Of a stretch of 64,000 nt of DNA, positions 50,176 to 64,000 are shown in pieces (the first letter of the stretch is position 1; the number at the start of each line of letters is the position of its first letter). Source of the DNA: Fibrobacterales bacterium (GTDB taxonomy: Bacteria > Fibrobacterota > Fibrobacteria > Fibrobacterales > JAOPTW01); the NCBI GenBank assembly GCA_051532055.1, contig JAOPTX010000023.1, forward strand, positions 1 to 64,000. Reading direction: 5' to 3'. The notes beneath the pieces are model-generated. The model searched no databases. It was given only the letters and a program-made list of their open reading frames with translations, and was not told where the DNA came from. The translations under genes were made by a program, and so were the position numbers.

Positions 50176-51798
50176 CTATTTTTGAATAATATCACTTATC
50201 GTAATACCAAATCCTGCATCAGCAATCATCGGACTCATTGAACGATTAATGTGTGTTGGAAAAGGAAATTCACTGTCATAGGTCACTGAAAAACCATAAG
50301 GCTTATCCTTAATTCCACTATCAACCTCTGAAAACAATTCCATTATACTAAAGTCTGAGTAGCGTTCTTTACCTATTGTTATTGCTATTTTTTGTACGCC
50401 ACTATACTCAACACTCGTTACCTCATTAGACTCGAGGGTCACAATAAATGGCCCAGTATCTTCAACTAAGCAATAACATGAGCGGTAAAATGTATATGTT
50501 GCACTTCCGCCAGTATCATAAACCCACTCTTTGTAAGCCATTTCAACAGAATCCAATATGGGCCTCGGGTCATCACCAATGTCCATGCTATCTATAGAAA
50601 AATTAAGGCCCCCATCTACTTCCGTAGGCCCGATATTGACTTTCATAGGGTATCCATACTCTGTATGATACTCTATCCCTTTATATTCACTATTCTCTTC
50701 TATATATCCATCAGATTCGAATCGTTCAAGCTCATTTTCAACTTCTTGAAACAGGTCATTTACACTGAGCTGAAGATAATCAACATCTGCTAACCCGTCA
50801 AAAGACATAAAAGCTCCACCATCTGAAAAATACTCACCCTCATTCACTGTATTAAATATTCTATGGACAGTATTACCCGCTGCACTTACATCAAAAGGCC
50901 CCGTTGACTCCGGCATACAATTACACCCTTTAAAAACAGAATAAGTAATCCTACTCGCAGTTTCTCCTACAAATCTATTCCACAATTCACGATTCTGTTC
51001 TAACTCTAATAGAGCGGATGACCGTTTTTCTACACACGACCCAATACCCCCACAATCACCATCACATTCCCAGGTATTTGACTCAATTGAATAAGAGCAA
51101 CCAGAAGAAGTGCAGTGCTCTTCACATGATTCTGGGCATGAACCGTAATTAAACGATCGACACTGGTCATCGCGACTACTCAACCGAAAATCCTCTTCAA
51201 TAGGAAATGTAATGGGTTCTTCTAGCAGGAGGCACCAATTTGCACAGGGGTCATCAGTCGAAATATCTACTGGAATTACATAGCTTCGACGCCCATTGTC
51301 ATCCCAAAAGGCAATCTCGACTCCCTTAATTTGGCCTTCATTTTTTTCAGGAATTATCAGTTCATGACTCTTATCCTCCGTTTCTGTCAAATCAAATTCT
51401 TGTCCAGCAAGTTCATCGTTCGATTCATCAGTCATATACCTGATATCAACGTTACCGGTAAAATCGTATTGAGTAATAGAATTACCCTTAATGAGGAGCG
51501 CGGTATCACCACTTTCATACTCAAAAACTACCGTGCCAATTGTTAGAATACACCCAATAATTTCATCACACTGTTCATTTGAGGAATCATCAAGCTCTTC
51601 TGATGATTCTACTGTAATAATACTGCTTGAACTCTCGACTAACACATCTGTAGTAGTACTACTACTGTTACTACTCGCAACCGTCACTGAACTACTGGAA
51701 GATTGTTCATCAATATCTTCGCTATCTACAGAAAAACAACCAGCACAAACCACAATACTATAGACCAACAACAAACATAAAAAAGGTACTTTCTTCAT
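50176..51798 (-). CDS. Acidic lipoprotein with Ser-rich linker, Cys-rich region and two DUF6174-like repeats
   Basis: Lipobox CAGC, poly-Ser, and two copies of C.C...TGPF.V...S..LF.EV...Y...P. Confidence 0.75.
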   Translation of the reverse strand: MKKVPFLCLLLVYSIVVCAGCFSVDSEDIDEQSSSSSVTVASSNSSSTTTDVLVESSSSIITVESSEELDDSSNEQCDEIIGCILTIGTVVFEYESGDTALLIKGNSITQYDFTGNVDIRYMTDESNDELAGQEFDLTETEDKSHELIIPEKNEGQIKGVEIAFWDDNGRRSYVIPVDISTDDPCANWCLLLEEPITFPIEEDFRLSSRDDQCRSFNYGSCPESCEEHCTSSGCSYSIESNTWECDGDCGGIGSCVEKRSSALLELEQNRELWNRFVGETASRITYSVFKGCNCMPESTGPFDVSAAGNTVHRIFNTVNEGEYFSDGGAFMSFDGLADVDYLQLSVNDLFQEVENELERFESDGYIEENSEYKGIEYHTEYGYPMKVNIGPTEVDGGLNFSIDSMDIGDDPRPILDSVEMAYKEWVYDTGGSATYTFYRSCYCLVEDTGPFIVTLESNEVTSVEYSGVQKIAITIGKERYSDFSIMELFSEVDSGIKDKPYGFSVTYDSEFPFPTHINRSMSPMIADAGFGITISDIIQK

Positions 51799-51900
51799 CT
51801 CTATCTCCTCATACCCTTAAAAACTACCTTCTTAGAAGGAGGTAGTTATGATAATTTTATCTATCTGTCGGATAAGTGCTCACATTCAGTGAGCACTTAC

Positions 51901-51935
51901 AAAAAATAGCAACCATTGTCAGGTTGCTATTTTTT
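51901..51935 (-). terminator. Terminator after the symporter
   Basis: AAAAAATAGCAACC..GGTTGCTATTTTTT. Confidence 0.85.
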
Positions 51936-51956
51936 AAAGAAAAAGGCTCTTTTACT

Positions 51957-53930
51957 CTATTTATCGAGAGGAGCGAGTCCTTCATTATCTTTTTGCGTTT
52001 TAAGTGAAACTACTATGAGTGTTAAAAAACTAAGGGGTATTGAGATGATACCAGGATTATCGAGCCCTAGAATTGCGTTACTCGGGTCGAGACCATATTT
52101 CAGATACATACTCGGCGAAACAAGGATAATTGACAATGCGGAGACCATCCCCACCCCAATTGACCAGGCAATACCTTTAGCAGTTGTTTTTTTCCAAAAA
52201 AGCAGCATTATTATGGATGGTAAATTAGCCGAGGCAGCTACTGCAAATGCCCACCCAACGAGGAACGAAACATTCATTCCTTTAAATGCGATTCCAAGAA
52301 ATATAGCGATAATACCTACAGCAAAAGCAGCAATTTTACCCGCCTTTACCTTACCGTGATCAGTCATCTTAATCCCGAGATAATTATCCATAAGATCGTG
52401 TGCCACCGCGCCAGAGGCAGCGACAATCAAACCAGAAACCGTACCAAGTACTGTAGCAAAAGCAATAGCTGATATAATAGAGAAGAGCGTGAGACTAAAT
52501 GCCTTTGCCAGAAGTGGCGCCGACATATTCCCCGACTCAACATCAATCACACCAGAAGTCATTGCACCAAGACCCATAAAAAGAGTGAGTACGTAAAAGA
52601 AACCGATACCTGCAATTGCAACAATTGTCGATTTTCGTGCGTCACGCTGAGAGGGAACGGTATAATACCTTATGAGAATATGAGGCAGTGCAGCAGTACC
52701 AAAAAAGAGAGCAAGCATAAGTGAGATAAAGTTTATTTTACCCATATTAGACTTTGTTTCAAATTTTTGCCCTGGCACCATAAAGTCTTCACCCTTGGTG
52801 ATTTCTGGCACAAAGAGAGTGACCTTCTCATCACCATCAATAAATTTTGCTCTCTTAAGTTTAGGATACCGAACAACTTCAGTATTATTAAGAGTAGAGA
52901 AGTATTCAAGAATACCTAGAGACCCCGTTTCTTCGACCTCTTTACCGTCTACCACTATTTTGGTAAGATAGCCAACAGCCTTCATCTTGCCCTCTTCTTT
53001 AGGCGCGCCATTATACCATGCACTTCCATCTTTTCTCATGGTTTTAAACTGAGTTTGTTCGAGTTTTACGGTTCCATCTAACTCAACAAGTAACCACCAC
53101 CCATCAACACCCTCTTTTTGAGTTTTAACAAATGTCTTTCCAGATGTACCATCTTTCTTTTGAAGAACAATAGAATGAGGGTTTTTAGAAACAGCAAGAA
53201 GAGTATTTGTAGAGTCCCCATCAGTAACTGCCCCTTGAGGAAACGCCACTACACCATTATTAACAACGACATCAATATAGGTCGGCATAAAAACATCTGT
53301 TTTTGGCTTTGTTGTAAGACCTTTATCGAGTACTACAAAAGTGATAACCGTTGTAAAAATGATGAGCAATCCACCTTTAAGAAACTGCACGTAGGTTGTT
53401 GAAGTCATGCCTGCTGTTGCAACAATAAATATCACAATGGCACCCACCATAACAACACCAATCCAATGATCCAGCCCAAGAAGCGGTGTAACTAATACTC
53501 CAGCACCCACCATCTGAGGAATCAGATAAAAGAGTGATACCATCAGTGTGGAGACAGCAGCCATGAACTGTATTTTCTTTGAATTAAATCTTGAATCAAG
53601 AGCGTCCGTAAATGTGAATTTGCCAAGACGCTTCATAGGTTCTGCGACAACAAACAGGGCAACAATCCACCCAGCCAAATACCCAATAGAGTAGAGAAAC
53701 CCATCATACCCCATGGTAGCAATCATTCCACATATACCGAGAAACGATGCAGCCGAAAGATAATCACCGGCAAAGGCAACACCATTAACAAACCAATGTA
53801 TGGTTCCTCCTGCTGCAAAATAACCTGCAGAAGATTTAGCTTTACGCGCAAAGAAAAATGAAAGGCCCAGTACGACGCCCACAAACATAGCGAAAATTGC
53901 AATCGCTATTGGACTTGCGATATAATTCAT
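51957..53930 (-). CDS. Sodium:solute symporter, ActP-like (cation/acetate), with large loop insertion
   Basis: NG.A.AGDYLSAASFLG, YLIPQMVGAG, GTAALPHIL.RYYTV, AFATVL.TV.GL, AASANLP. Confidence 0.92.
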   Translation of the reverse strand: MNYIASPIAIAIFAMFVGVVLGLSFFFARKAKSSAGYFAAGGTIHWFVNGVAFAGDYLSAASFLGICGMIATMGYDGFLYSIGYLAGWIVALFVVAEPMKRLGKFTFTDALDSRFNSKKIQFMAAVSTLMVSLFYLIPQMVGAGVLVTPLLGLDHWIGVVMVGAIVIFIVATAGMTSTTYVQFLKGGLLIIFTTVITFVVLDKGLTTKPKTDVFMPTYIDVVVNNGVVAFPQGAVTDGDSTNTLLAVSKNPHSIVLQKKDGTSGKTFVKTQKEGVDGWWLLVELDGTVKLEQTQFKTMRKDGSAWYNGAPKEEGKMKAVGYLTKIVVDGKEVEETGSLGILEYFSTLNNTEVVRYPKLKRAKFIDGDEKVTLFVPEITKGEDFMVPGQKFETKSNMGKINFISLMLALFFGTAALPHILIRYYTVPSQRDARKSTIVAIAGIGFFYVLTLFMGLGAMTSGVIDVESGNMSAPLLAKAFSLTLFSIISAIAFATVLGTVSGLIVAASGAVAHDLMDNYLGIKMTDHGKVKAGKIAAFAVGIIAIFLGIAFKGMNVSFLVGWAFAVAASANLPSIIMLLFWKKTTAKGIAWSIGVGMVSALSIILVSPSMYLKYGLDPSNAILGLDNPGIISIPLSFLTLIVVSLKTQKDNEGLAPLDK

Positions 53931-54211
53931 TCTTTCACCTCTTTATTAAGTGCATTCTCTTTTTGGGTGCAAAAGTGGTTATAGACAAGTCCAAGTAATA
54001 CCGCAAATATGATGAGGCCCATGCCATAAATAATTGCAAGATTAACACCTGCAAATGCCTTGGTCCCCAATAATTCGGTTTTGAAAACTGCAATACCTAC
54101 AAACCCCATATAGATGAGACAATAAAGCCAAAAGAGTTTTATACCCAATTTTGCTTTCCACTCGGAAGCATTGTCCTTCCCAAGTTTTACTGCTGGTCCA
54201 TGACCTGCCAT
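53927..54211 (-). CDS. DUF485 (YjcH-like) small membrane partner of ActP-type symporter
   Basis: Two TM segments, GGAGG SD in front of ATG 54211, and ATGA overlap with the symporter. Confidence 0.85.
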   Translation of the reverse strand: MAGHGPAVKLGKDNASEWKAKLGIKLFWLYCLIYMGFVGIAVFKTELLGTKAFAGVNLAIIYGMGLIIFAVLLGLVYNHFCTQKENALNKEVKE

Positions 54212-54237
54212 TATGACCTCCTGAATAATACATTGAC

Positions 54238-54253
54238 TTACAACTTTGTAAAT
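54238..54253. promoter_or_regulatory. Operator copy 1: TTACAA-N2-TTGTAA
   Basis: Identical 16-mer in inverted orientation at 56037-56052. Confidence 0.75.
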
Positions 54254-54367
54254 CCTTTTTGAAAAGTAACAAGAATTCAATTTTTGCCGTGAGTAATAAA
54301 CATCGGGAGTCAATAAAATGGACGGCTTACTCCATTAAAGAGGACGCACTTCTTCGATCCTGAGTAC

Positions 54368-54400
54368 AAAAAAAGGCCACTTTCCATAGAAAGCAGCCTC
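54368..54400 (-). terminator. Terminator after DUF3360 gene
   Basis: AGGCTGCTTTC-TATG-GAAAGTGGCCT followed by a T-run on the minus strand. Confidence 0.85.
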
Positions 54401-54419
54401 AATACTAATAAGAATTTGC

Positions 54420-55949
54420 TTACAGTATAGCAGGAATACCTGGAAGTTGGCCAACGAGAGCCAAAGAACCAATACATATTATAAAAGCTGCACCAGGAAT
54501 AAGAAGCTTATCTTTCCACGAAAGCTCTTTTGCGCGCTCTGCATCACCAATAAATCCAAGATTGTCAAGAAGCATGGTAGTAGCCCAACCAAATACCGGA
54601 TTAACAAAAGCACATGCAAAAATACAGATACCTGCACTGAGCGAATCTTTGTGTTTATGAACCATCTGCATACCAGCTTCAAGAAGTGGTAAGAAAACAC
54701 CAACAATCAACGCGACACGAAGCACAGGCTCCCACATAGCAAGGTCCATTGGAAATCCAAGTACTGACGCCACTATACATAGAAGACCTGTGAGTAACGC
54801 ACCGCCTGGAATTGGGCGTTTTGCAATTGCCGCAGGAATCATATAAGTACCCCACGATGATGCAAGGTTACCACCCCCAAGAAACGACCCAACACCCTGG
54901 CGAATTGAAGCGCCAATCATAGTGTCATCAACATTCATCAACACACCTTTCGCATCTTTTGGATAGTTCATCTCTTGAAATACTCGGTGGCCAAGATAAT
55001 CCGGAGACCACATCGCCACTGCTAGAATTGCAAAAGGAATAACCGCGACAAAATGACCGAGATTAGGCCATCCCATAAGCCATCCGGTATTATCTCCCCA
55101 CCAATACAATGGACTAAAATGCGGAAGACCCGGTGATGTTGAAAATGAAAAGTCTGCACCACAAGCAAGAGCAACAATCCCCGCGAGTGCAGAACAAAGA
55201 GGAATTGCCAACCAGCGTTTATTTACTTTTGCAAGATAGGCATACACAAGAAGTGTAACACCGATAACCGCAAAAGAGACATACCCCATAGAAGCATCAG
55301 CAGCAACTAGTTTAGTTGCACTTACTGATCCATCAGGTAATAAGCTGCCAGCCCATTTCCCTAATTTCCCAATCTGCCCCATTAACCCGAAGGCCCCGAG
55401 ATAAATAAGGAGTCCACCCCTCACACCAACCCCCGTTAGTGTCATAAGTTTTGACCCTCCTTTAGTAAAGGCCAAAATAAGTCCAAAAACTCCTACCATT
55501 ACTCCTAGAGCGAGAGGGTGACCACCAGCTGCTGCAATCATAGCAATAAGCGGAATCATTGGTCCATGAGTCCCTGCAAGGTTAGCATTTGGATTGAGAA
55601 TTGCCGAGAAAAGAATAACAAAAAGGAGGCCCGCAATGAGTAACTCGTACCGCACATTTTCTGCAATAAACGCTAATTTATCAGCTTCAGGAAGATGGAA
55701 AAGGTCAAAACCTGGAGCATTTGCAAAAGCTGCGACACAAGCAGTCACCATAACCACTTTGCCAATGGTGGCGGCGAGCGCTGGAACCCAGTCTTCAATT
55801 TCGATATTGTAATCTTTAAACGGGAGGTGAATACCCCATCTTCGAAAACTCATTATTTTTAACTCGTGATTTAGATACTCTTCACGGTTATCAAACTCTT
55901 TTGATTTTTTCCGCATCTGTTTATAGAATTGGTTTGGATCTTTAGCCAT
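54420..55949 (-). CDS. DUF3360 family polytopic membrane protein (putative transporter)
   Basis: F..REEYL.HEL.IM...RW, EDWVPA.A.TIGK, ANLAGTHGP.IP, WSPD.LGHRVFQ, SSWGTY. Confidence 0.85.
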   Translation of the reverse strand: MAKDPNQFYKQMRKKSKEFDNREEYLNHELKIMSFRRWGIHLPFKDYNIEIEDWVPALAATIGKVVMVTACVAAFANAPGFDLFHLPEADKLAFIAENVRYELLIAGLLFVILFSAILNPNANLAGTHGPMIPLIAMIAAAGGHPLALGVMVGVFGLILAFTKGGSKLMTLTGVGVRGGLLIYLGAFGLMGQIGKLGKWAGSLLPDGSVSATKLVAADASMGYVSFAVIGVTLLVYAYLAKVNKRWLAIPLCSALAGIVALACGADFSFSTSPGLPHFSPLYWWGDNTGWLMGWPNLGHFVAVIPFAILAVAMWSPDYLGHRVFQEMNYPKDAKGVLMNVDDTMIGASIRQGVGSFLGGGNLASSWGTYMIPAAIAKRPIPGGALLTGLLCIVASVLGFPMDLAMWEPVLRVALIVGVFLPLLEAGMQMVHKHKDSLSAGICIFACAFVNPVFGWATTMLLDNLGFIGDAERAKELSWKDKLLIPGAAFIICIGSLALVGQLPGIPAIL

Positions 55950-56036
55950 CTATTTTATTCTCCATCTATTGTGATAAAGGGGATTTCGAGCCCCTTCTAG
56001 TTCGTCTATCAAGTCGGGCAAAAGGTAGAAAATTCT

Positions 56037-56052
56037 ATTTACAAAGTTGTAA
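56037..56052. promoter_or_regulatory. Operator copy 2: ATTTACAAAGTTGTAA
   Basis: Identical to the reverse complement of 54238-54253. Confidence 0.75.
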
Positions 56053-56237
56053 TCATGGTCATTATTTAAGCCTGTACTGAAAAATGATTTTCCGCAACAT
56101 TTTTCTGATCGGCACTCATATTTTATTGATCTTTTCTCGCATATTATCATACGATCCATTCAGATTGAGATTAGGTTTTAACAGTACCCATAATAATTTC
56201 ATCAATCTATTAGAGTTCAAATATCTATAATTGAACT

Positions 56238-58817
56238 ATGAAAATTACTGACCATGCAAATCATACAGAGAAACTCTTTGGAGTACGAGCTGAAGACATC
56301 CATAAATGGATCGATGGCTTTTTTGACCACGATAGCTTTCAACAACACATTGGCACTGGCCAATCGTTTGCATACAATCCTTATGACCATCGCAAATTCA
56401 GACACTGTCAAGAAGCATTAGATGAAGCGTATACCGAATTTAGTGACACCTACTCTCAGCATGACATTAAAAATGTTTTTGAGCAGCACATTAAAGACGA
56501 TTATAACGGGTACATCCCTACCCGAACCGATTTTGAGAACGGCACCTTTACTCAAAAATATCACGACGCACTCCATATCGGAGAATGGAACACCATTCTC
56601 GATTCCCAAGAACTCTCAGATTATTTCAAAGGAGTCGGTACTTTTGACAGCTATCAAAAACCCAATCACTTTGTCAGTACCTTTGGATTTAGAATTGTCG
56701 CACCCACCGTCATAGCCATCTTCCTCTTTATCACCGCCATCTTTTTGGTGATTGTACCAGTTTTTGAAGAGTCGATGATTGGACAAAAAAAGCTGATGAT
56801 CAAGGAACTCACTGCATCTGCTGTGAGCATTGTAGAGCAGTACAAATCAAAAAGTGATGCAGGATTCTTAACGATTGAAAACGCACAACAAAGAGCTGCT
56901 CAAGAAATTCAATCGATGCGCTATGGCACGGGTAACAAAGACTATTTCTTTATCACCGATATGAACCCTACCATGATTATGCACCCTTACCGTAAGGAGC
57001 TTACTGGTAAGGACCTCAGCAACTACACCGATACCGAAAATAAAAGCGGCAAAAAACTTTTCGTCGAATTTGTCAATCTAGTCAAGGAACATTCTGAAGG
57101 ATATCTCAAATATCGTTGGCAGTGGATGGATGATGCTGAAACCTCCGTTCCAAAACTATCCTATGTCCGCGGTGTACCAGACTGGAATTGGGTCGTGGGA
57201 ACCGGAGTCTACATTAACGACATAGAAGATGAGATTGAACGACTCGAACACACACTCTATCAAACGTTCTTTGCCATCACTCTTGGCCTTATTCTAATCA
57301 TGACCTATATCATCACCCAAAGTCGCACTACTGAAAACCGGAAACGGCGTGCAGAAGTCCTACTGCATGAAGCCAAGGACCGATATCGAGCTTTGGTAGA
57401 ATCTTCGAATGAAGGGTATATCCTCGAAGCTGAAGGATCTATTATCTATTCAAATCACCGACTCCAACAGATGGTTGGATATACTGAATTAGAACTCAAC
57501 AACCACTCTATTTGGGAAAAGCTCTTCCCCAATAACCCCATAAATATCCCAGTCCTTCATCACCTCTTGGCTCTTTTTAACCATTCAGCTGAACCTGCAG
57601 AATTTGAGGCGCAACTCTATACACAATCAGGAAAAACAATTGATATCATACTCAGTACCTCAAAGATTTTTTTATCAGAAAAACAAGGGCATGTAATATC
57701 CTTTAGACCCATCATCCGTAAGACCTATAGCAATGCTTTTACTTCAGAGAAGAAAATTAATGATTATACTGGTCTTTCAAGTACCATTGTTGAAGAGATA
57801 CAAGAAAGCAACTCCCTGGGCCATATTGTAGAGTCGCTCAACCAACTACCCATTCTTATTCGCTCAATGATTCATCAAGGGTCAACTCCCGACAATCTCC
57901 GTCGCGTTATCGGGGCAGCATATGATTCCGCAATTAAACGATTCATTACCCTCTCCATTACCGAACTTGGTCAACCACCAGTTTCTTTCTCATTTATATC
58001 TCTGGGGAGTAATGCACGACACGATATGACCCTCTTCTCTGACCAAGACAATGCTATTGTATTTGATCTTCCCGATGGCCACGATATTGATAAAGTACGT
58101 CGATATTTTTTACACCTTGCCGACAAAGTATGCGCCATGCTTAACCAAGCGGGCTATCCCTACTGCGAAGGAAGAATCATGGCCACCAATCCTCAATGGT
58201 GTTTAAGTGTCGAAGAGTGGCATAATAATTTCAGCGACTGGATAACTCATGCATCACCTGGCTCAATACTCGAAGTGAATGTCTTCTTTGATATACGCTC
58301 TACCTATGGAGATCAAGTACTCGTTGATCGAATACAAGATCATATTGTTGCAGTCAATAAGGAAAACCAACAGTTCTTTATTCACTACGCTAAAAACTGT
58401 CTCGCCTATAAACCCCCACTCAACCTTTTTGGTAAACTCAAAACTGAGACACGAGATGGCGTGAAGTCAATCAACCTTAAAGAGTGCCTCAGGCCTATGG
58501 AAATTTTTTGCAGAATATATGCTCTTAAGCATGATATTCGTGATGCAAACACTATTTCAAGATTAAAACACCTTGTTGCCTGTGGAGAAATTCACGAAGA
58601 AAGCTACAGAGAGATGGTCTATATATTTGATCACATATGGAATTTACGTTTTATGAATCAGATTATTGAATACACCGATCTTAGAAAAGTAAATGATGTA
58701 TTGGCCATTAATGATTTGACTGATCTTGAACAACAAAATTTAAGAAATGTTCTTTCAAAAATTTCACTCTTCCAGACTAAAATCAGTTATGACTTTTTTG
58801 GTGGAGCACAGATATAA
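56238..58817 (+). CDS. Membrane sensor: His-rich N-domain + TM + Cache_2 + TM + PAS + DUF294/DUF294_C nucleotidyltransferase
   Basis: Cache motif RYG...DYFFI.D.....MHP...GK..F....G...Y.W...PKLSYV...W.WVVGTGVY; NTase motif GS.AR.D....SDQDNA at 58005-58055; C.G.IMA.NP.W; FFD.R..YGD. Confidence 0.88.
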   Translation: MKITDHANHTEKLFGVRAEDIHKWIDGFFDHDSFQQHIGTGQSFAYNPYDHRKFRHCQEALDEAYTEFSDTYSQHDIKNVFEQHIKDDYNGYIPTRTDFENGTFTQKYHDALHIGEWNTILDSQELSDYFKGVGTFDSYQKPNHFVSTFGFRIVAPTVIAIFLFITAIFLVIVPVFEESMIGQKKLMIKELTASAVSIVEQYKSKSDAGFLTIENAQQRAAQEIQSMRYGTGNKDYFFITDMNPTMIMHPYRKELTGKDLSNYTDTENKSGKKLFVEFVNLVKEHSEGYLKYRWQWMDDAETSVPKLSYVRGVPDWNWVVGTGVYINDIEDEIERLEHTLYQTFFAITLGLILIMTYIITQSRTTENRKRRAEVLLHEAKDRYRALVESSNEGYILEAEGSIIYSNHRLQQMVGYTELELNNHSIWEKLFPNNPINIPVLHHLLALFNHSAEPAEFEAQLYTQSGKTIDIILSTSKIFLSEKQGHVISFRPIIRKTYSNAFTSEKKINDYTGLSSTIVEEIQESNSLGHIVESLNQLPILIRSMIHQGSTPDNLRRVIGAAYDSAIKRFITLSITELGQPPVSFSFISLGSNARHDMTLFSDQDNAIVFDLPDGHDIDKVRRYFLHLADKVCAMLNQAGYPYCEGRIMATNPQWCLSVEEWHNNFSDWITHASPGSILEVNVFFDIRSTYGDQVLVDRIQDHIVAVNKENQQFFIHYAKNCLAYKPPLNLFGKLKTETRDGVKSINLKECLRPMEIFCRIYALKHDIRDANTISRLKHLVACGEIHEESYREMVYIFDHIWNLRFMNQIIEYTDLRKVNDVLAINDLTDLEQQNLRNVLSKISLFQTKISYDFFGGAQI

Positions 58818-58855
58818 AAAATGCCAGTAAGGCTGTCCCCCTACTAGCATTTTTT
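58816..58855. terminator. Bidirectional terminator
   Basis: AAAAAATGC.AGTA..TACT.GCATTTTTT between convergent genes. Confidence 0.7.
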
Positions 58856-58874
58856 AAAATCAAATCTATTCGTA

Positions 58875-59378
58875 TTATGCAACAGCGGTTGTTGTTCGAC
58901 CACCCAACTCTTTATCAAGAAGATACAGACCATTTGCCTGTTGATCAACAAGAGAAATTTGATCGAGAATCCCTTGAACCGTTGCCTCTTCTTCAACCTG
59001 CTCATCAATATACCAACGCATCATTGATTCTGTAGCAAGGTCATCTTCTTTACGGGCCAGTTTTAACAGTCCCTCAATAGTCGTTGTAATATACTTTTCG
59101 TGAGCGAGTGCTTTTTCAAAAACATCCTGCATTGAGTCAAATGATTCATTCACTTTTCCAAAAGCATTGTACGATGGTTTTCCACCACGACTAAAGATAT
59201 AGTTATAAAACTTCCAAGCATGCATCATCTCTTCTTCAGCCTGCATTCTCATCCAATGAGCGCATCCCGGAAGCTTATTATCTTCAAAATATGCCGCCAT
59301 AGCAACATAGACAAAGTACGACTTCATCTCTTCATTCATCTGTGTATTTAATGCTTCCATCATAATAGCATTTGTCAT
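58875..59378 (-). CDS. ftnA: Non-heme ferritin
   Basis: LN.Q.NEE..S...Y, Q.EEE..H, HE..IT, EQVEEE, LDKEL. Confidence 0.93.
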   Translation of the reverse strand: MTNAIMMEALNTQMNEEMKSYFVYVAMAAYFEDNKLPGCAHWMRMQAEEEMMHAWKFYNYIFSRGGKPSYNAFGKVNESFDSMQDVFEKALAHEKYITTTIEGLLKLARKEDDLATESMMRWYIDEQVEEEATVQGILDQISLVDQQANGLYLLDKELGGRTTTAVA

Positions 59379-59493
59379 GGTATACCTCGCCCTTACAGTT
59401 ATTATCTATATGCCTTAATTAGGCCCTCATTCTTGCTATACAAAATAACAAAAGAGAAGACTGATTACGGGTTTGATTTCATTAAACAGCTAA

Positions 59494-59850
59494 TCAAAGA
59501 TAGAGTTCTTGCCAAATTTCTTCTTTAAAACCAACTGAACCCTTGTCACCACTAATTACAAAGGGGCGTTTTACAAGATTACCATCTGCTGCGAGTGCAT
59601 CTATAGCCTCAGCGACTGTAATATCTTTTATCTTATCTTTCCAGTTCTCAGCCTTATATACTACACCACTCGTATTAAATAATTTTTTTATTTCCCCTTC
59701 ATAGATTTTAAGCATTTGCTTAAGCTCTTTTTTAGTTGGGGCTTTTTCACGTATTGGCACCTCAGTAACTTCGAGACCATTTGCTTCTGCAAATTTTACT
59801 GCTTTTCTACAGGTACCACATTTATTATAGGTATATGCTTTAATTGCCAT
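59494..59850 (-). CDS. ArsC/Spx/MgsR (YffB-like) family protein
   Basis: CGTCRKA, FNTSG..Y, LVKRP, VGFKEE.W. Confidence 0.9.
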   Translation of the reverse strand: MAIKAYTYNKCGTCRKAVKFAEANGLEVTEVPIREKAPTKKELKQMLKIYEGEIKKLFNTSGVVYKAENWKDKIKDITVAEAIDALAADGNLVKRPFVISGDKGSVGFKEEIWQELYL

Positions 59851-61189: not shown

Positions 61190-62602
61190 ATGAGGCCACA
61201 AATAATACTCGCCATACTTATTCCCCTTGTTATAGTGATAGGGAGTATCTTATATTCAATAAAGCCTAATGAAATATCACTCGACAACCCACAGCATTTC
61301 ATAATTCAAAAGAAACCCCATGTAGACCATAAGGATCTTATTACCGGCGATTTTAAAGACGGCCCATCGGTTACCAGAACATGCCTCAGCTGCCATAAAA
61401 ATGCGGCTAAAGAGCACATGCAAACAACACACTGGAAGTGGACTACTGATTCAATCGCCGTGCCCTGGCACGACACAAAAATAATGGTGGGGAAAAAACA
61501 TTCGTTTAACAACTTTTGCATTGGCATTGCTGGTGGCAATGAATCCAAATGTACTAAGTGTCATACCGGCTATGGCTGGGAAGATAAAAATTTTGATTTC
61601 ACCGCAGAAGAACGCGTTGACTGCCTTGTGTGTCACGATGGTTCAGGACTCTATGCTAAAGTGGGCAAAGGACTCCCCAGCAAATCAGTGAATCTTACAG
61701 AAGTCGCTCAAAGTGTTGGCTATAGCTCGAGAAAAAACTGTGGTTCATGTCACTTTTCTGGTGGAGGCGGCAATGCTGTAAAACATGGAGACCTCGATGA
61801 ATCACTCTACTTTCCTACTCCTCGTATTGACATACATATGGGTAAACTTGATTTTCAATGTACTACTTGCCACGAAACAAAAGATCACAATATAACAGGT
61901 CGATCGATGTCTGTAAGCGTAACGAATGAGAATAGACTCGACTGTACCAAGTGTCATAATGAAAACCCTCACAAAGACACCCGTATAAATCTCCACACTA
62001 AACGAGTTGCCTGCCAGACTTGTCATATACCAGAGGTAGCGATTAAAACGCCAACAAAAACAGATTGGGACTGGTCAAAAGCAGGGCAAGAAGGCCGTGA
62101 AGAGGATGCCCATCACTATATGAAAATGAAAGGTGAGTTCATTTATAAGAAAAACCTTAAACCTGAGTACCACTGGTATAACGGTACTTCGAAAGTGTAC
62201 ATCACCGGACAAAAAGTAGATTCAACTAAAGGAGTCGCAATTAATGAGCCTCTTGGAAATATCAAAGATACACTATCTAAGATTTGGCCTTTTAAAGTTC
62301 ACCGAGGTAAACAAATTTATGACAATGTCAATAATTACTTAATTCAGCCTAAAACAGTGGGTGGCTATTGGGAGCATTTTGATTGGCAAAAAGCACTCAC
62401 TGCAGGCGCAAAAAACATGGGTCTTGACTATTCTGGTTCATATGGATTTACGCAAACTGAAATGTACTGGCCTTTGTCACATATGGTTGCAGAATCTAAC
62501 AGAGCACTCTCATGTATGGAATGTCATGGCGATGATGGACGTATAGACTGGAAAACACTCGGCTACCCCGGTGACCCCATGACAACCATAGGAGGCAATT
62601 AA
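61190..62602 (+). CDS. Octaheme c-type cytochrome, tetrathionate reductase (OTR) family
   Basis: 8 CxxCH (CLSCH, CTKCH, CLVCH, CGSCH, CTTCH, CTKCH, CQTCH, CMECH); GGGG..VKHGD; LGY.GDP. Confidence 0.93.
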   Translation: MRPQIILAILIPLVIVIGSILYSIKPNEISLDNPQHFIIQKKPHVDHKDLITGDFKDGPSVTRTCLSCHKNAAKEHMQTTHWKWTTDSIAVPWHDTKIMVGKKHSFNNFCIGIAGGNESKCTKCHTGYGWEDKNFDFTAEERVDCLVCHDGSGLYAKVGKGLPSKSVNLTEVAQSVGYSSRKNCGSCHFSGGGGNAVKHGDLDESLYFPTPRIDIHMGKLDFQCTTCHETKDHNITGRSMSVSVTNENRLDCTKCHNENPHKDTRINLHTKRVACQTCHIPEVAIKTPTKTDWDWSKAGQEGREEDAHHYMKMKGEFIYKKNLKPEYHWYNGTSKVYITGQKVDSTKGVAINEPLGNIKDTLSKIWPFKVHRGKQIYDNVNNYLIQPKTVGGYWEHFDWQKALTAGAKNMGLDYSGSYGFTQTEMYWPLSHMVAESNRALSCMECHGDDGRIDWKTLGYPGDPMTTIGGN

Positions 62603-62603
62603 T

Positions 62604-64000
62604 ATGTATTATTTTACACACATTATTTTCGCACTGTTTTTTGTGAGTACCCTTGCTACTGCAAGCCCTATTCATCCAACCATTGAGTGGAAAGATACCC
62701 TCGGAGCTCCAACCAAAAATGAGGTATCCTACGAAGCCTCATGTGGACAGTGTCATGATATCGATTACATTAAAAGCCATGATTCCCATGCAAAGCTTTA
62801 TGCAAATGAGAGTTTTAACTGTTTGACTTGTCATAGCGGTACTGTACCACAAACTGCCCCATCACAAACAACAACAATCACTCGTCCGCGTACTGAACAC
62901 TGCCAACAATGTCATACCAATGATAACGTCTACAGCAAAAAATCTGGGCGTTTCTATTCGGGTAAAAAGGTTTCAGAGTCAAATTTTAATATCCCGGGCA
63001 AGTCACAAATCAATCACGCTTGGGACATTCATGCTGAACGTGGCCTCAACTGCAATGACTGCCATTTCTCGACAAACAACCCTGTTTTCTTACGTAAAGA
63101 AGATACATCAAAACCATCACACTTAGAATTCGACCCCAGACGGCCCGATATTGGAGAATTTTTAAAACGACCCAGTCATAAGCTTGCCTTTACCGCTGGA
63201 GAACGATATGACTGTACGTATTGTCACACCGGTGAACATAGTGGCATATGGAAGGACCGCTCCGATATACACTTTAAAAAACTTGAGTGTCAGAGTTGTC
63301 ACACTCCTACTATCAAATCACCACTACTCGATACCATTAATAATACGATACGGTCAAATAATGCACCCGTGAAAATATTTAAAAACGTTGATACCAAGGG
63401 TGTTATTACCCCCTTCAGACCAATGCTCTATAAAACCAACATAAAGAGCGCTTACAAGCCCTACAACAATATCACCGAATTTTATTTTTATGCAACCACT
63501 CAAAAGAAACGTGTTCCAGACTCTGTCATTGCACAGATTTCGCTAGAACACAGCACTGAGATACATAACTATCTAGACCTTAATAAAGACGGTTGGGTTA
63601 CAGGCAATGAACAAGGCCCTGCTTCAGGAGTCTATTTTGATTTCATGAAAACTCAACTCCTAGAGCAAGGATACAGTGGCATCATTGTTAAAAAGAACTA
63701 CTCTTTTCATCACATTGCACACAATACTGTCACCGCAGAATATGCAACAAAACAATGCAGTGAATGTCACTCATCTCAAAATGCATTTAGTACTATTCTC
63801 GTTTCCCAAGGCCCTACAGACTCCCTCTCCTCATTTAGTTGCAGTGAAGATAATCTGTACATTTTCGGAAGAGAATGTAGCAGTACGGTTAACCTCATTG
63901 GCATCTTAACCATAATTGCTGTACTCATTGGCATTATACTCCACGGAGGACTCCGAGTAATCATACGTATAAAAAACGGGAGTCATCACAAAATTAAAAC
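62604..64000 (+). CDS. Multiheme c-type cytochrome with C-terminal membrane segment (runs off window; missed by ORF track)
   Basis: Open frame from ATG 62604 (GGAGG SD) with a signal peptide, 7 CxxCH (CGQCH, CLTCH, CQQCH, CNDCH, CTYCH, CQSCH, CSECH) and a TM helix ending HGGLR. Confidence 0.9.
   Translation, partial: MYYFTHIIFALFFVSTLATASPIHPTIEWKDTLGAPTKNEVSYEASCGQCHDIDYIKSHDSHAKLYANESFNCLTCHSGTVPQTAPSQTTTITRPRTEHCQQCHTNDNVYSKKSGRFYSGKKVSESNFNIPGKSQINHAWDIHAERGLNCNDCHFSTNNPVFLRKEDTSKPSHLEFDPRRPDIGEFLKRPSHKLAFTAGERYDCTYCHTGEHSGIWKDRSDIHFKKLECQSCHTPTIKSPLLDTINNTIRSNNAPVKIFKNVDTKGVITPFRPMLYKTNIKSAYKPYNNITEFYFYATTQKKRVPDSVIAQISLEHSTEIHNYLDLNKDGWVTGNEQGPASGVYFDFMKTQLLEQGYSGIIVKKNYSFHHIAHNTVTAEYATKQCSECHSSQNAFSTILVSQGPTDSLSSFSCSEDNLYIFGRECSSTVNLIGILTIIAVLIGIILHGGLRVIIRIKNGSHHKIK

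Follow-up and report, generated by a model that had tools for sequence, protein, structure and literature searches.

How might a bacterial receptor influence the uptake of organic acids when the output that it carries is a predicted nucleotidyltransferase? The question is raised by a locus in a 64,000-nt stretch of DNA (the window, from contig JAOPTX010000023.1 of a Fibrobacterales bacterium), in which a gene for an 859-residue receptor (56238..58817, + strand, recognised as an open reading frame (ORF) with Pfam domains) is one of four genes, the others encoding a DUF3360 membrane protein, a small DUF485 protein and an SSS-family symporter, all on the - strand. A preliminary description of the window had drawn attention to this arrangement and suggested that the receptor responds to external carboxylates by transferring a nucleotide. 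The protein joins a Cache receptor to a GlnE-like nucleotidyltransferase: both parts are of known kinds, and the output chemistry of the combination is predicted. The reading that we prefer, held tentatively and falling a little short of an even call, is that the protein is an acetate-type sensor that nucleotidylylates a protein to tune carboxylate uptake after translation.

A Cache receptor with a predicted nucleotidyltransferase output

From its N-terminus the receptor comprises DUF6915, a transmembrane segment, sCache_2, a second transmembrane segment, PAS, DUF294 and DUF294_C. The preliminary description had given this order from the first transmembrane segment onwards, which Pfam and hydropathy support, but had overlooked the N-terminal DUF6915. 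The transmembrane segments, placed by hydropathy (residues ~153-178 at 56694..56771, from windows above 1.6, and ~341-362 at 57258..57323, both + strand like all receptor features given here), enclose the sCache_2 domain (residues 181-335, 56778..57242; Pfam 128.5 bits against a cut-off of 25). There follow a cytoplasmic PAS domain (residues 382-490, 57381..57707; PAS_9 33.3, PAS_8 25.7 and TIGR00229 45.6 bits), for which the Pfam span is 382-486, the DUF294 nucleotidyltransferase core (residues 536-674, 57843..58259; PF03445, 145.3 bits against 21) and the helical 'substrate-binding' domain DUF294_C (residues 712-853, 58371..58796; PF10335, 113.1 bits against 22.5). sCache_2, PAS, DUF294 and DUF294_C all exceed their cut-offs. 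The 859-residue protein gave no Pfam match to a kinase, GGDEF or methyl-accepting chemotaxis protein (MCP) output, or to cNMP_binding or CBS, just as had been claimed, and a genome-wide profile search showed it to be the product of the only DUF294 gene in the genome.

The Cache domain had been described as a carboxylate-type input, and comparison with solved sensor domains bears this out. Residues 180-333 match 4K08 (3.3e-26) and 5G4Y/5G4Z (1.7e-25), that is, with E-values of 1e-25 to 1e-26, as well as 2QHK and 4EXO. The published account of the PscD sensor domain (PscD-SD) lists glycolate, acetate, propionate and pyruvate as its ligands and describes propionate as contacted by Tyr90, His103, Tyr143 and Lys156, flanked by Trp92/Trp145 and with Phe126 as a back wall; in the same account acetate is bound by PscD, Adeh_3718 and McpP alike (PMC5062169). 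On alignment, Y236, H249, F275, Y292, W294 and K306 of the receptor correspond to PscD Y90, H103, F126, Y143, W145 and K156, so that six of the seven contacts are identical, the seventh being changed from Trp92 to F238. These six residues are invariant in 119/119 relatives, and position 238 is F in 74 of them and W in 45. Since the pocket contacts match those of PscD and are invariant in relatives, a C2/C3 monocarboxylate is a well-supported expectation for the ligand.

The receptor therefore shares with PscD, Adeh_3718 (4K08) and McpP the same sCache_2 domain, with the contacts noted above, but differs from PscD-type chemoreceptors in the Trp92 to Phe change and in having a nucleotidyltransferase where those proteins have an MCP signalling domain. 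Among NCBIfam models the Cache region scores best with the MctS sensor kinase (residues 172-350, 85.3 bits, far under the cut-off of 700). MctS/MctR with MctP, and CrbS/CrbR, are two-component carboxylate sensors that control monocarboxylate transporters. The logic of the present locus is the same, in that a sensor of external carboxylate is encoded beside a monocarboxylate symporter, but the receptor possesses no histidine kinase, response regulator or DNA-binding output.

At the other end of the protein, the GS-x10-D-x-D motif that had been reported as intact is present as G590-S591-x10-D602-Q-D604 and is invariant in 119/119 relatives, as is a third acidic residue, D685, just past the DUF294 core. 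R594, K748, R775, W801, R804, F805 and Q808 are further invariant residues of the C-terminal module among these 119 relatives. An AlphaFold model of residues 500-859, built from 56 sequences, has a pLDDT of 91 and a pTM of 0.88, and its leading Foldseek matches are the DrrA AMPylation domain (6yx5_B, 1.3e-8), two chains of the GlnE adenylylation domain (3k7d, 7.5e-8 and 9.0e-8) and, in fourth place, the GlnE N-terminal domain (1v4a, 8.7e-7), with TM-scores of 0.59-0.63 for these top matches. DUF294_C aligns to GlnE and DrrA jointly with the core. The next matches after the AMPylators are aminoglycoside nucleotidyltransferases, starting with ANT(4') at 0.019. At the level of sequence, the 56-sequence nucleotidyltransferase profile found no PDB chain at E<=1; as for GlnD, PF03445 also gave a match in E. 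coli in a control search. Fold and motif together thus agree with the GlnE-like output that had been proposed and predict an intact enzyme. The C-terminal module has the look of an active enzyme, its closest relatives in structure being modifiers of proteins. It has in common with GlnE, GlnD and DrrA (SidM) the fold of the nucleotidyltransferase core and helical domain and the G-S...D-x-D motif, but its regulatory domains are wholly different, it is membrane-anchored and it lacks a sequence-level match to solved structures.

In a search for homologues, 557 proteins matched at E<=0.001. The 120 of these matches that were listed, which are 47-77% identical to the query, all have sCache_2, DUF294 and DUF294_C, and their sources include Vibrio, Agarivorans, Corallincola, Desulfobacter, Pontiella and other Kiritimatiellales, Cloacimonadota, Delongbacteria and others. 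The conservation alignment referred to throughout holds 119 of these 120 relatives, the 1016-residue P0090 having been excluded by a length filter. Databases label them in general terms (as 'DUF294 nucleotidyltransferase-like domain-containing protein' or 'PAS domain S-box protein') or wrongly as chemotaxis proteins. Searched with a profile of the C-terminal module, public proteins yielded 4951 cluster representatives at E<=0.001, of which 1994 reached E<=1e-30. When the best 150 of these representatives were classed with hidden Markov models built for this analysis, a Cache domain was found in 99, of which nine carry DUF6915 at the N-terminus, 19 carry PHP and 71 carry neither; DUF6915 and PHP occur together in none of the 28. 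Judging by these searches, the receptor represents an architecture common across many phyla, with two or more sister architectures, all present in databases yet never studied. Our literature search found no published characterisation of DUF294, COG2905, DUF6915 or DUF3360, and no paper naming DUF6915 or DUF3360; supplementary files lay outside that search.

The N-terminal domain and related forms

The cytoplasmic DUF6915 domain (residues 1-103, 56238..56546) was recognised by PF21866 with 27.8 bits, just over the cut-off of 27, in a search of residues 1-150 alone; the score was 21.6 in the whole protein and 28.3 'with neighbours' in a genome search. A DUF6915 match is found in 52/64 relatives, and conservation of the domain almost equals that of the catalytic part (column means of 0.68 and 0.71). 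H22, W24, D26, H51, R52, R55, H56, H84, D88 and H109 are invariant in 119/119 relatives, while H6, E59 and D87 are kept in 118. The domain is modelled as all-helical with a moderate pLDDT of 67.5. A Foldseek search of this model against the PDB gave nothing at E<=0.001, a wide VIA-align search gave a best Z of 4.3, an uninformative match to helices of viral coats and colicins, and the profile found only noise in the PDB, at E>=0.2. Against PHROGs there was one weak match, to phrog_586 (E 0.0089), for which no function is annotated, and standalone DUF6915 clusters, of 118-132 residues, are mostly viral. A predicted complex of the nucleotidyltransferase module with DUF6915 (residues 1-115) scored 0.00, which gives no verdict and was used neither for nor against an interaction.

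What the domain may do is suggested by its counterparts. We examined four receptor variants from the same phylum (L099-L102, our numbers for loci); of the five other genomes that gave a match, four are represented. Three of the four are PHP-Cache-PAS-DUF294 proteins of 934-963 residues, two of which (L100 and L102) stand beside DUF485/SSS genes, and the fourth is a Cache-PAS-CBS-DUF294 protein in a DUF4212-SSS-receptor operon. The PHP-sCache_2-PAS-DUF294 receptors share the body of two transmembrane segments, Cache, PAS, DUF294 and DUF294_C, but have a PHP phosphoesterase in the N-terminal cytoplasmic slot that DUF6915 fills here.

Soluble forms of the module provide a second comparison. The preliminary description had set the receptor against soluble cNMP-CBS-DUF294 proteins encoded with an exonuclease, and this holds in all four Vibrionaceae loci sampled: the soluble protein is of 623-655 residues with CBS, DUF294 and DUF294_C (cNMP_binding in 3/4), a gene for an RNase_T protein of 238-242 residues lies directly 3' of it in 4/4, and an SSS gene is nearby in 2/4. 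Such soluble forms were found by the window's profile in 145/151 Vibrionaceae genomes, with E-values of ~1e-60 to 1e-77. The receptor has the same DUF294/DUF294_C module as these COG2905-type proteins, and SSS linkage occurs with both, but its input is a transmembrane sCache_2 with PAS rather than cytoplasmic cNMP/CBS domains, it has the extra DUF6915 and no RNase_T gene, and its linked transporters include DUF3360. As had been noted, no exonuclease gene adjoins the receptor by Pfam, the gene 3' of it being a convergent ferritin gene; nor was a close RNase_T partner found in the genome, where the best RNase_T-like match (39 bits) is on a different contig. Across 70 receptor loci we found no exonuclease, PHP or metallophosphatase gene beside this receptor subtype, and an EEP-family gene in L057 only.

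A built-in phosphodiesterase role for DUF6915 is attractive because the domain holds the position of PHP and because the soluble forms have an RNase_T partner. By this analogy, which is speculative, DUF6915 may be an opposing (removing) or regulatory activity.

Linkage to transporter genes

We fetched 74 receptor loci and analysed the 70 noted above, four (L071-L074) having been set aside as partial or Cache-only. The linkage to transporter genes that had been described recurs across phyla, with a transporter from one of four families in 36/70 loci (L002, a 95%-identical relative of the present locus, counted once), but it is not universal, since in 23 loci whose flanks could be read no transporter lies within three genes of the receptor; the remaining 11 of the 70 are too short to judge. 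DUF3360 is encoded divergently upstream in 16 loci, namely L002 and every Vibrio, Corallincola and Alginatibacterium locus, at 73-98% identity. DUF485 with a long SSS is found in 12 (59-92% identity, including L002 and a fragment in L028), a distant SSS of 26-33% identity in eight, preceded by a DUF4212 protein in 6/6 of those tested with Pfam, and a GPR1/FUN34/YaaH (SatP-type) gene in one. Among 151 Vibrionaceae genomes sampled, DUF3360 occurs in 107 and the receptor type in eight, and in 8/8 of the latter DUF3360 lies ~3 kb off on the opposite strand; as these genomes overlap the fetched loci, the two linkage counts are not independent.

In the window itself, the arrangement that had been described of DUF3360, DUF485 and a 657-residue SSS divergent from the receptor is confirmed by the ORF list and Pfam. 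The DUF3360 membrane protein (509 residues, 54420..55949, - strand, divergent from the receptor) matches PF11840 with 845.7 bits across almost the entire profile (positions 7-503 of 503). Its profile found no match in the PDB, and its nearest named clusters are the MOT1, SulP, BenE and NCS2 anion carriers, a language-model lead only; DUF3360 is a probable anion transporter. The DUF485 small subunit (53927..54211, - strand; Pfam DUF485 43.2 bits) is taken as 94 residues with a revised start, whereas the ORF as listed reaches 54313. Its start is most likely the ATG at 54211 rather than that of the 128-residue ORF, because an AGGAGG box precedes this ATG and the resulting length resembles that of homologous ORFs (93-119 residues).

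The ActP/MctC-like symporter (657 residues, 51957..53930, - strand) matches Pfam SSF at 225 bits in two stretches and falls below the NCBIfam cut-offs for MctC (438.5 against 670, an equivalog model), ActP (PRK09395, 401.6 against 750, a subfamily model) and VC_2705 (255.1 against 320.75). Between the two stretches, after the sixth hydrophobic segment, lie ~195 hydrophilic, beta-rich residues (~205-400; window 52730-53320), an insert that is probably periplasmic. The same two-stretch match is found in the SSS genes, for 620-641 residues, of 11 receptor loci, which suggests that the insert marks a distinct 'long SSS' subfamily. At L018, L040, L042, L055, L059, L062 and L099, the DUF4212 proteins encoded beside the receptors are of 223-259 residues and match DUF4212 only in the last ~45, leaving an N-terminal extension of ~170-205 residues with no assigned family. 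In L035, L046, L050, L055 and L062 (Kiritimatiellales, Verrucomicrobiota), the symporter gene is followed by one for an OprD-like or DcaP-like outer-membrane porin, an order that fits an organic-acid uptake cassette.

The DUF3360-receptor pair (54420-58817) looks horizontally acquired, because it is scarce in its own phylum yet close to gammaproteobacterial copies. Among 296 genomes of the phylum DUF3360 is present in two, both of the same genus as the window, and the nucleotidyltransferase module in seven, while identity to the Vibrio, Corallincola and Alginatibacterium copies is 80-84% for DUF3360 and 56-66% for the receptor. Base composition shows no break. In two draft Vibrio assemblies the genes appear interrupted, the receptor being in three pieces and DUF3360 in two in L012, and DUF3360 having two stop codons in L014; these interruptions could reflect decay of the pair or sequencing error.

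Published fitness data, the sole genetic evidence that we came across, connect the soluble relatives of this system to organic-acid use. In the portion of that study concerned with these families, DUF4212-SSS genes are needed for use of D,L-lactate or D-alanine, ActP-like permeases show co-fitness with DUF485 and have phenotypes on pyruvate, and some DUF4212-SSS genes show co-fitness with a neighbour that bears the label 'COG2905 (RNAse T domain protein)', which its authors speculate to be required for symporter expression (10.1101/072470). The label, as it is given there, leaves ambiguous which gene of the nucleotidyltransferase/exonuclease pair is meant.

What the receptor may modify

Taken together, these observations can be read as follows. 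The protein would be a one-component transmembrane receptor-enzyme, in which a C2/C3 monocarboxylate of the acetate, glycolate, propionate or pyruvate type would, by homology, bind the periplasmic sCache_2 pocket. The signal would pass through the second transmembrane segment and a conserved linker to the PAS domain and on to the GlnE/DrrA-like nucleotidyltransferase, which would move a nucleoside monophosphate (NMP) from a nucleoside triphosphate to a protein side chain, a kind of target that the fold suggests. This modification would tune carboxylate uptake after translation, a step to which gene linkage and the co-fitness of a gene of the soluble nucleotidyltransferase/exonuclease pair both point. 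DUF6915, in the slot that PHP occupies in sister receptors, may speculatively supply the opposing or regulatory activity, while transcription of the locus would be set separately by a global palindrome-binding regulator. A transporter had been put forward as a possible target of NMPylation, and this part of the earlier proposal fares poorly: four unrelated carrier families argue against one transporter protein as the direct substrate, and the substrate is likelier to be the receptor itself, or a shared partner whose gene lies elsewhere, than each transporter.

Several points weigh against this scheme. The ligand, the nucleotidyl transfer and the target are each predicted, and the GlnE/DrrA fold is compatible, as far as models tell, with an acceptor other than a protein, aminoglycoside nucleotidyltransferases having the same fold. 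As no partner gene recurs at every locus, gene context fails to point to a target, and the 23 readable loci with no transporter within three genes count in the same direction. The co-fitness described in the relevant part of the published study concerns the soluble system and not the Cache receptor. DUF6915 has no detectable similarity to any hydrolase, and the idea of it as an 'eraser' comes from its position and its His/Asp content only.

A structured RNA bears on a different account. The receptor-linked DUF3360 genes of 15 gammaproteobacterial loci (L003-L014, L016, L070 and L075, from Vibrio, Corallincola and Alginatibacterium) have in common a structured 5' leader of ~100 nt that lies ~40-145 nt upstream of the DUF3360 start (for example L004:9666-9768, - strand). 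Its 18 predicted pairs are formed in 98.5% of cells of the alignment, against 28-53% in slid controls, eight of them show compensatory changes, a number reached by 0/500 shuffles, and the G-U pairs agree with the DUF3360 sense strand. The leader has no Rfam match, with nothing at gathering score for L003, L004 and L006, and a covariance model built from it found one copy per genome in five genomes, in each case at the receptor-linked DUF3360, even though one of the five has three DUF3360 paralogues. From its sequence, the leader may be a new cis-regulatory RNA.

This leader keeps alive a scheme that we consider unlikely but worth holding in view, in which the nucleotidyltransferase makes a nucleotide signal in response to external carboxylate, RNase_T, PHP and perhaps DUF6915 degrade it, and an RNA or protein effector switches the transporter genes. 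The module is regularly paired with a nuclease or phosphoesterase (RNase_T at 4/4 soluble loci, fused PHP in 3/4 variants of the phylum), the soluble forms bear cNMP-binding and CBS nucleotide-sensing domains, the leader could be the receiving element in the 15 gammaproteobacterial loci, and the effect on symporter expression speculated upon in the section of 10.1101/072470 discussed above would fit. The closest folds, however, are protein AMPylators, whose substrate-binding domain DUF294_C matches, and no effector was identified; nor was the leader found in the window, where the best covariance score is 9.7 bits (E 7.3) and the DUF3360 leader region folds like its shuffles (z = 0.03).

Still less probable, in our view, is that the receptor reports acetate-type carboxylates to central metabolism by nucleotidylylating a housekeeping enzyme or regulator whose gene lies elsewhere, its transporter neighbours reflecting only a shared theme, the same substrate, and no direct control. 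Such a role would account for the 23/59 readable loci that lack a transporter neighbour and for the involvement of four unrelated transporter families, and metabolic neighbours do occur, namely a gene resembling that for acetate kinase in L017 and, in L067, a GlcD-like oxidase with electron-transfer flavoprotein. It sits poorly, however, with the strict adjacency of DUF3360 in Gammaproteobacteria (16/16 loci and 8/8 genomes), with the apparent joint movement of the DUF3360-receptor pair into this phylum, and with the co-fitness, in the part of 10.1101/072470 that treats them, of one gene of the soluble nucleotidyltransferase/exonuclease pair with its symporter. That the module instead tails RNA 3' ends against a 3'-5' exonuclease, and so governs how long transporter mRNA or a small RNA persists, is highly improbable. 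In its favour are the existence of RNA tailing enzymes among the pol-beta nucleotidyltransferases, the DEDDh RNase_T-type exonuclease that closely accompanies the soluble forms (4/4 loci) and the structured leader of the linked DUF3360 genes. Against it, the fold search puts protein AMPylators first with no RNA nucleotidyltransferase among the top matches, the receptor has no exonuclease partner and the enzyme is anchored in the membrane.

Returning to protein nucleotidylylation as the preferred output, one can also imagine a grander version, which we think unlikely. Cache-DUF294 proteins would then form a new transmembrane signalling class that works by reversible nucleotidylylation, rather than by phosphorylation, methylation or cyclic-nucleotide synthesis, with DUF6915 as a small metal-dependent phosphodiesterase of a fold not recognised before, a built-in 'eraser' interchangeable with the PHP or RNase_T partners, the whole gating organic-acid import with involvement of the leader RNA in Gammaproteobacteria.

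The DUF294 module is very widespread, as the 4951 representatives and the 145/151 Vibrionaceae genomes indicate, though its chemistry rests on prediction, and the receptor form, unlike the soluble forms, offers a predictable external ligand with which the enzyme becomes directly testable. If the output is protein NMPylation, this would be a further output type for bacterial transmembrane signalling. On that condition it would also explain how many bacteria adjust their uptake of acetate-, lactate- and pyruvate-type acids, with relevance to carbon flow in gut, sediment and marine settings, and would as by-products assign jobs to DUF3360, DUF485, DUF4212 and DUF6915.

Transcription of the locus

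The two transporter units had been said to share an identical operator, and exact copies of a 16-nt palindrome with the core TTACAA-N2-TTGTAA do lie at both, but they are not private to the locus, as there are three further exact copies in the genome. Site 1 (54238..54253) is 27-42 nt upstream of the DUF485 start, and site 2 (56037..56052) is in the divergent region between DUF3360 and the receptor, 90-103 nt from the start of the former and 186-199 nt from that of the latter; because of this placement, site 2 may serve either gene. The two sites are an exact inverted match, and both are kept in L002 and absent from the other loci. Within the window there are three matches at <=1 mismatch against 0.45 expected. 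Genome-wide at this tolerance the palindrome is not enriched (39 matches against 30 for a reversed control), and the genome-wide reading rests on the exact core, which occurs at five sites in the 5.17-Mb genome, 5/5 of them intergenic.

The three exact copies outside the window (all in the L078-L080 set) lie upstream of the anaerobic ribonucleotide reductase gene nrdD (C23:119382), between a rubrerythrin gene and a downstream gene (C24:45993), and next to a gene for a Crp/Fnr-family regulator, ahead of an operon that includes a hemerythrin gene (C37:83404). From these positions we read the palindrome as a site recognised by a global regulator, perhaps one of the Crp/Fnr type, which would put the locus in a small regulon that extends beyond it and is perhaps anaerobic. 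The half-sites differ from the classical FNR and CRP consensus. Because the receptor has no DNA-binding output, the palindrome says nothing about the receptor.

A terminator-like hairpin, with a 12-pair stem followed by a T run, lies between DUF3360 and DUF485 (54373..54400, - strand) and, from its sequence, splits DUF3360 and DUF485-SSS into two transcription units. A scan for sigma-70 promoters found 21 sites against 20.7 expected. One candidate, TTTACA-16-TATTAT over site 1, was rejected, as transcription from it would start inside the ribosome-binding site, and it was not used to class the palindrome as an activator or a repressor site.

Other features of the window

Abutting the DUF3360 start is a 69-residue ORF (55950-56159, - strand), which we rejected as a gene, there being no Pfam or NCBIfam match and no counterpart in the other loci; in L002 it is 78% identical over 52 residues, against 91-98% for its neighbours. 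Its sequence suggests that this is probably non-coding leader or promoter DNA. A search of window positions 51500-59500 against Rfam gave no match at E<=1. Downstream of the receptor come ferritin, ArsC-family and disulphide-isomerase-like genes, followed at 61190-63998 by multihaem cytochrome genes with MtrC/MtrF-like and cytochrome c7/c3 domains.

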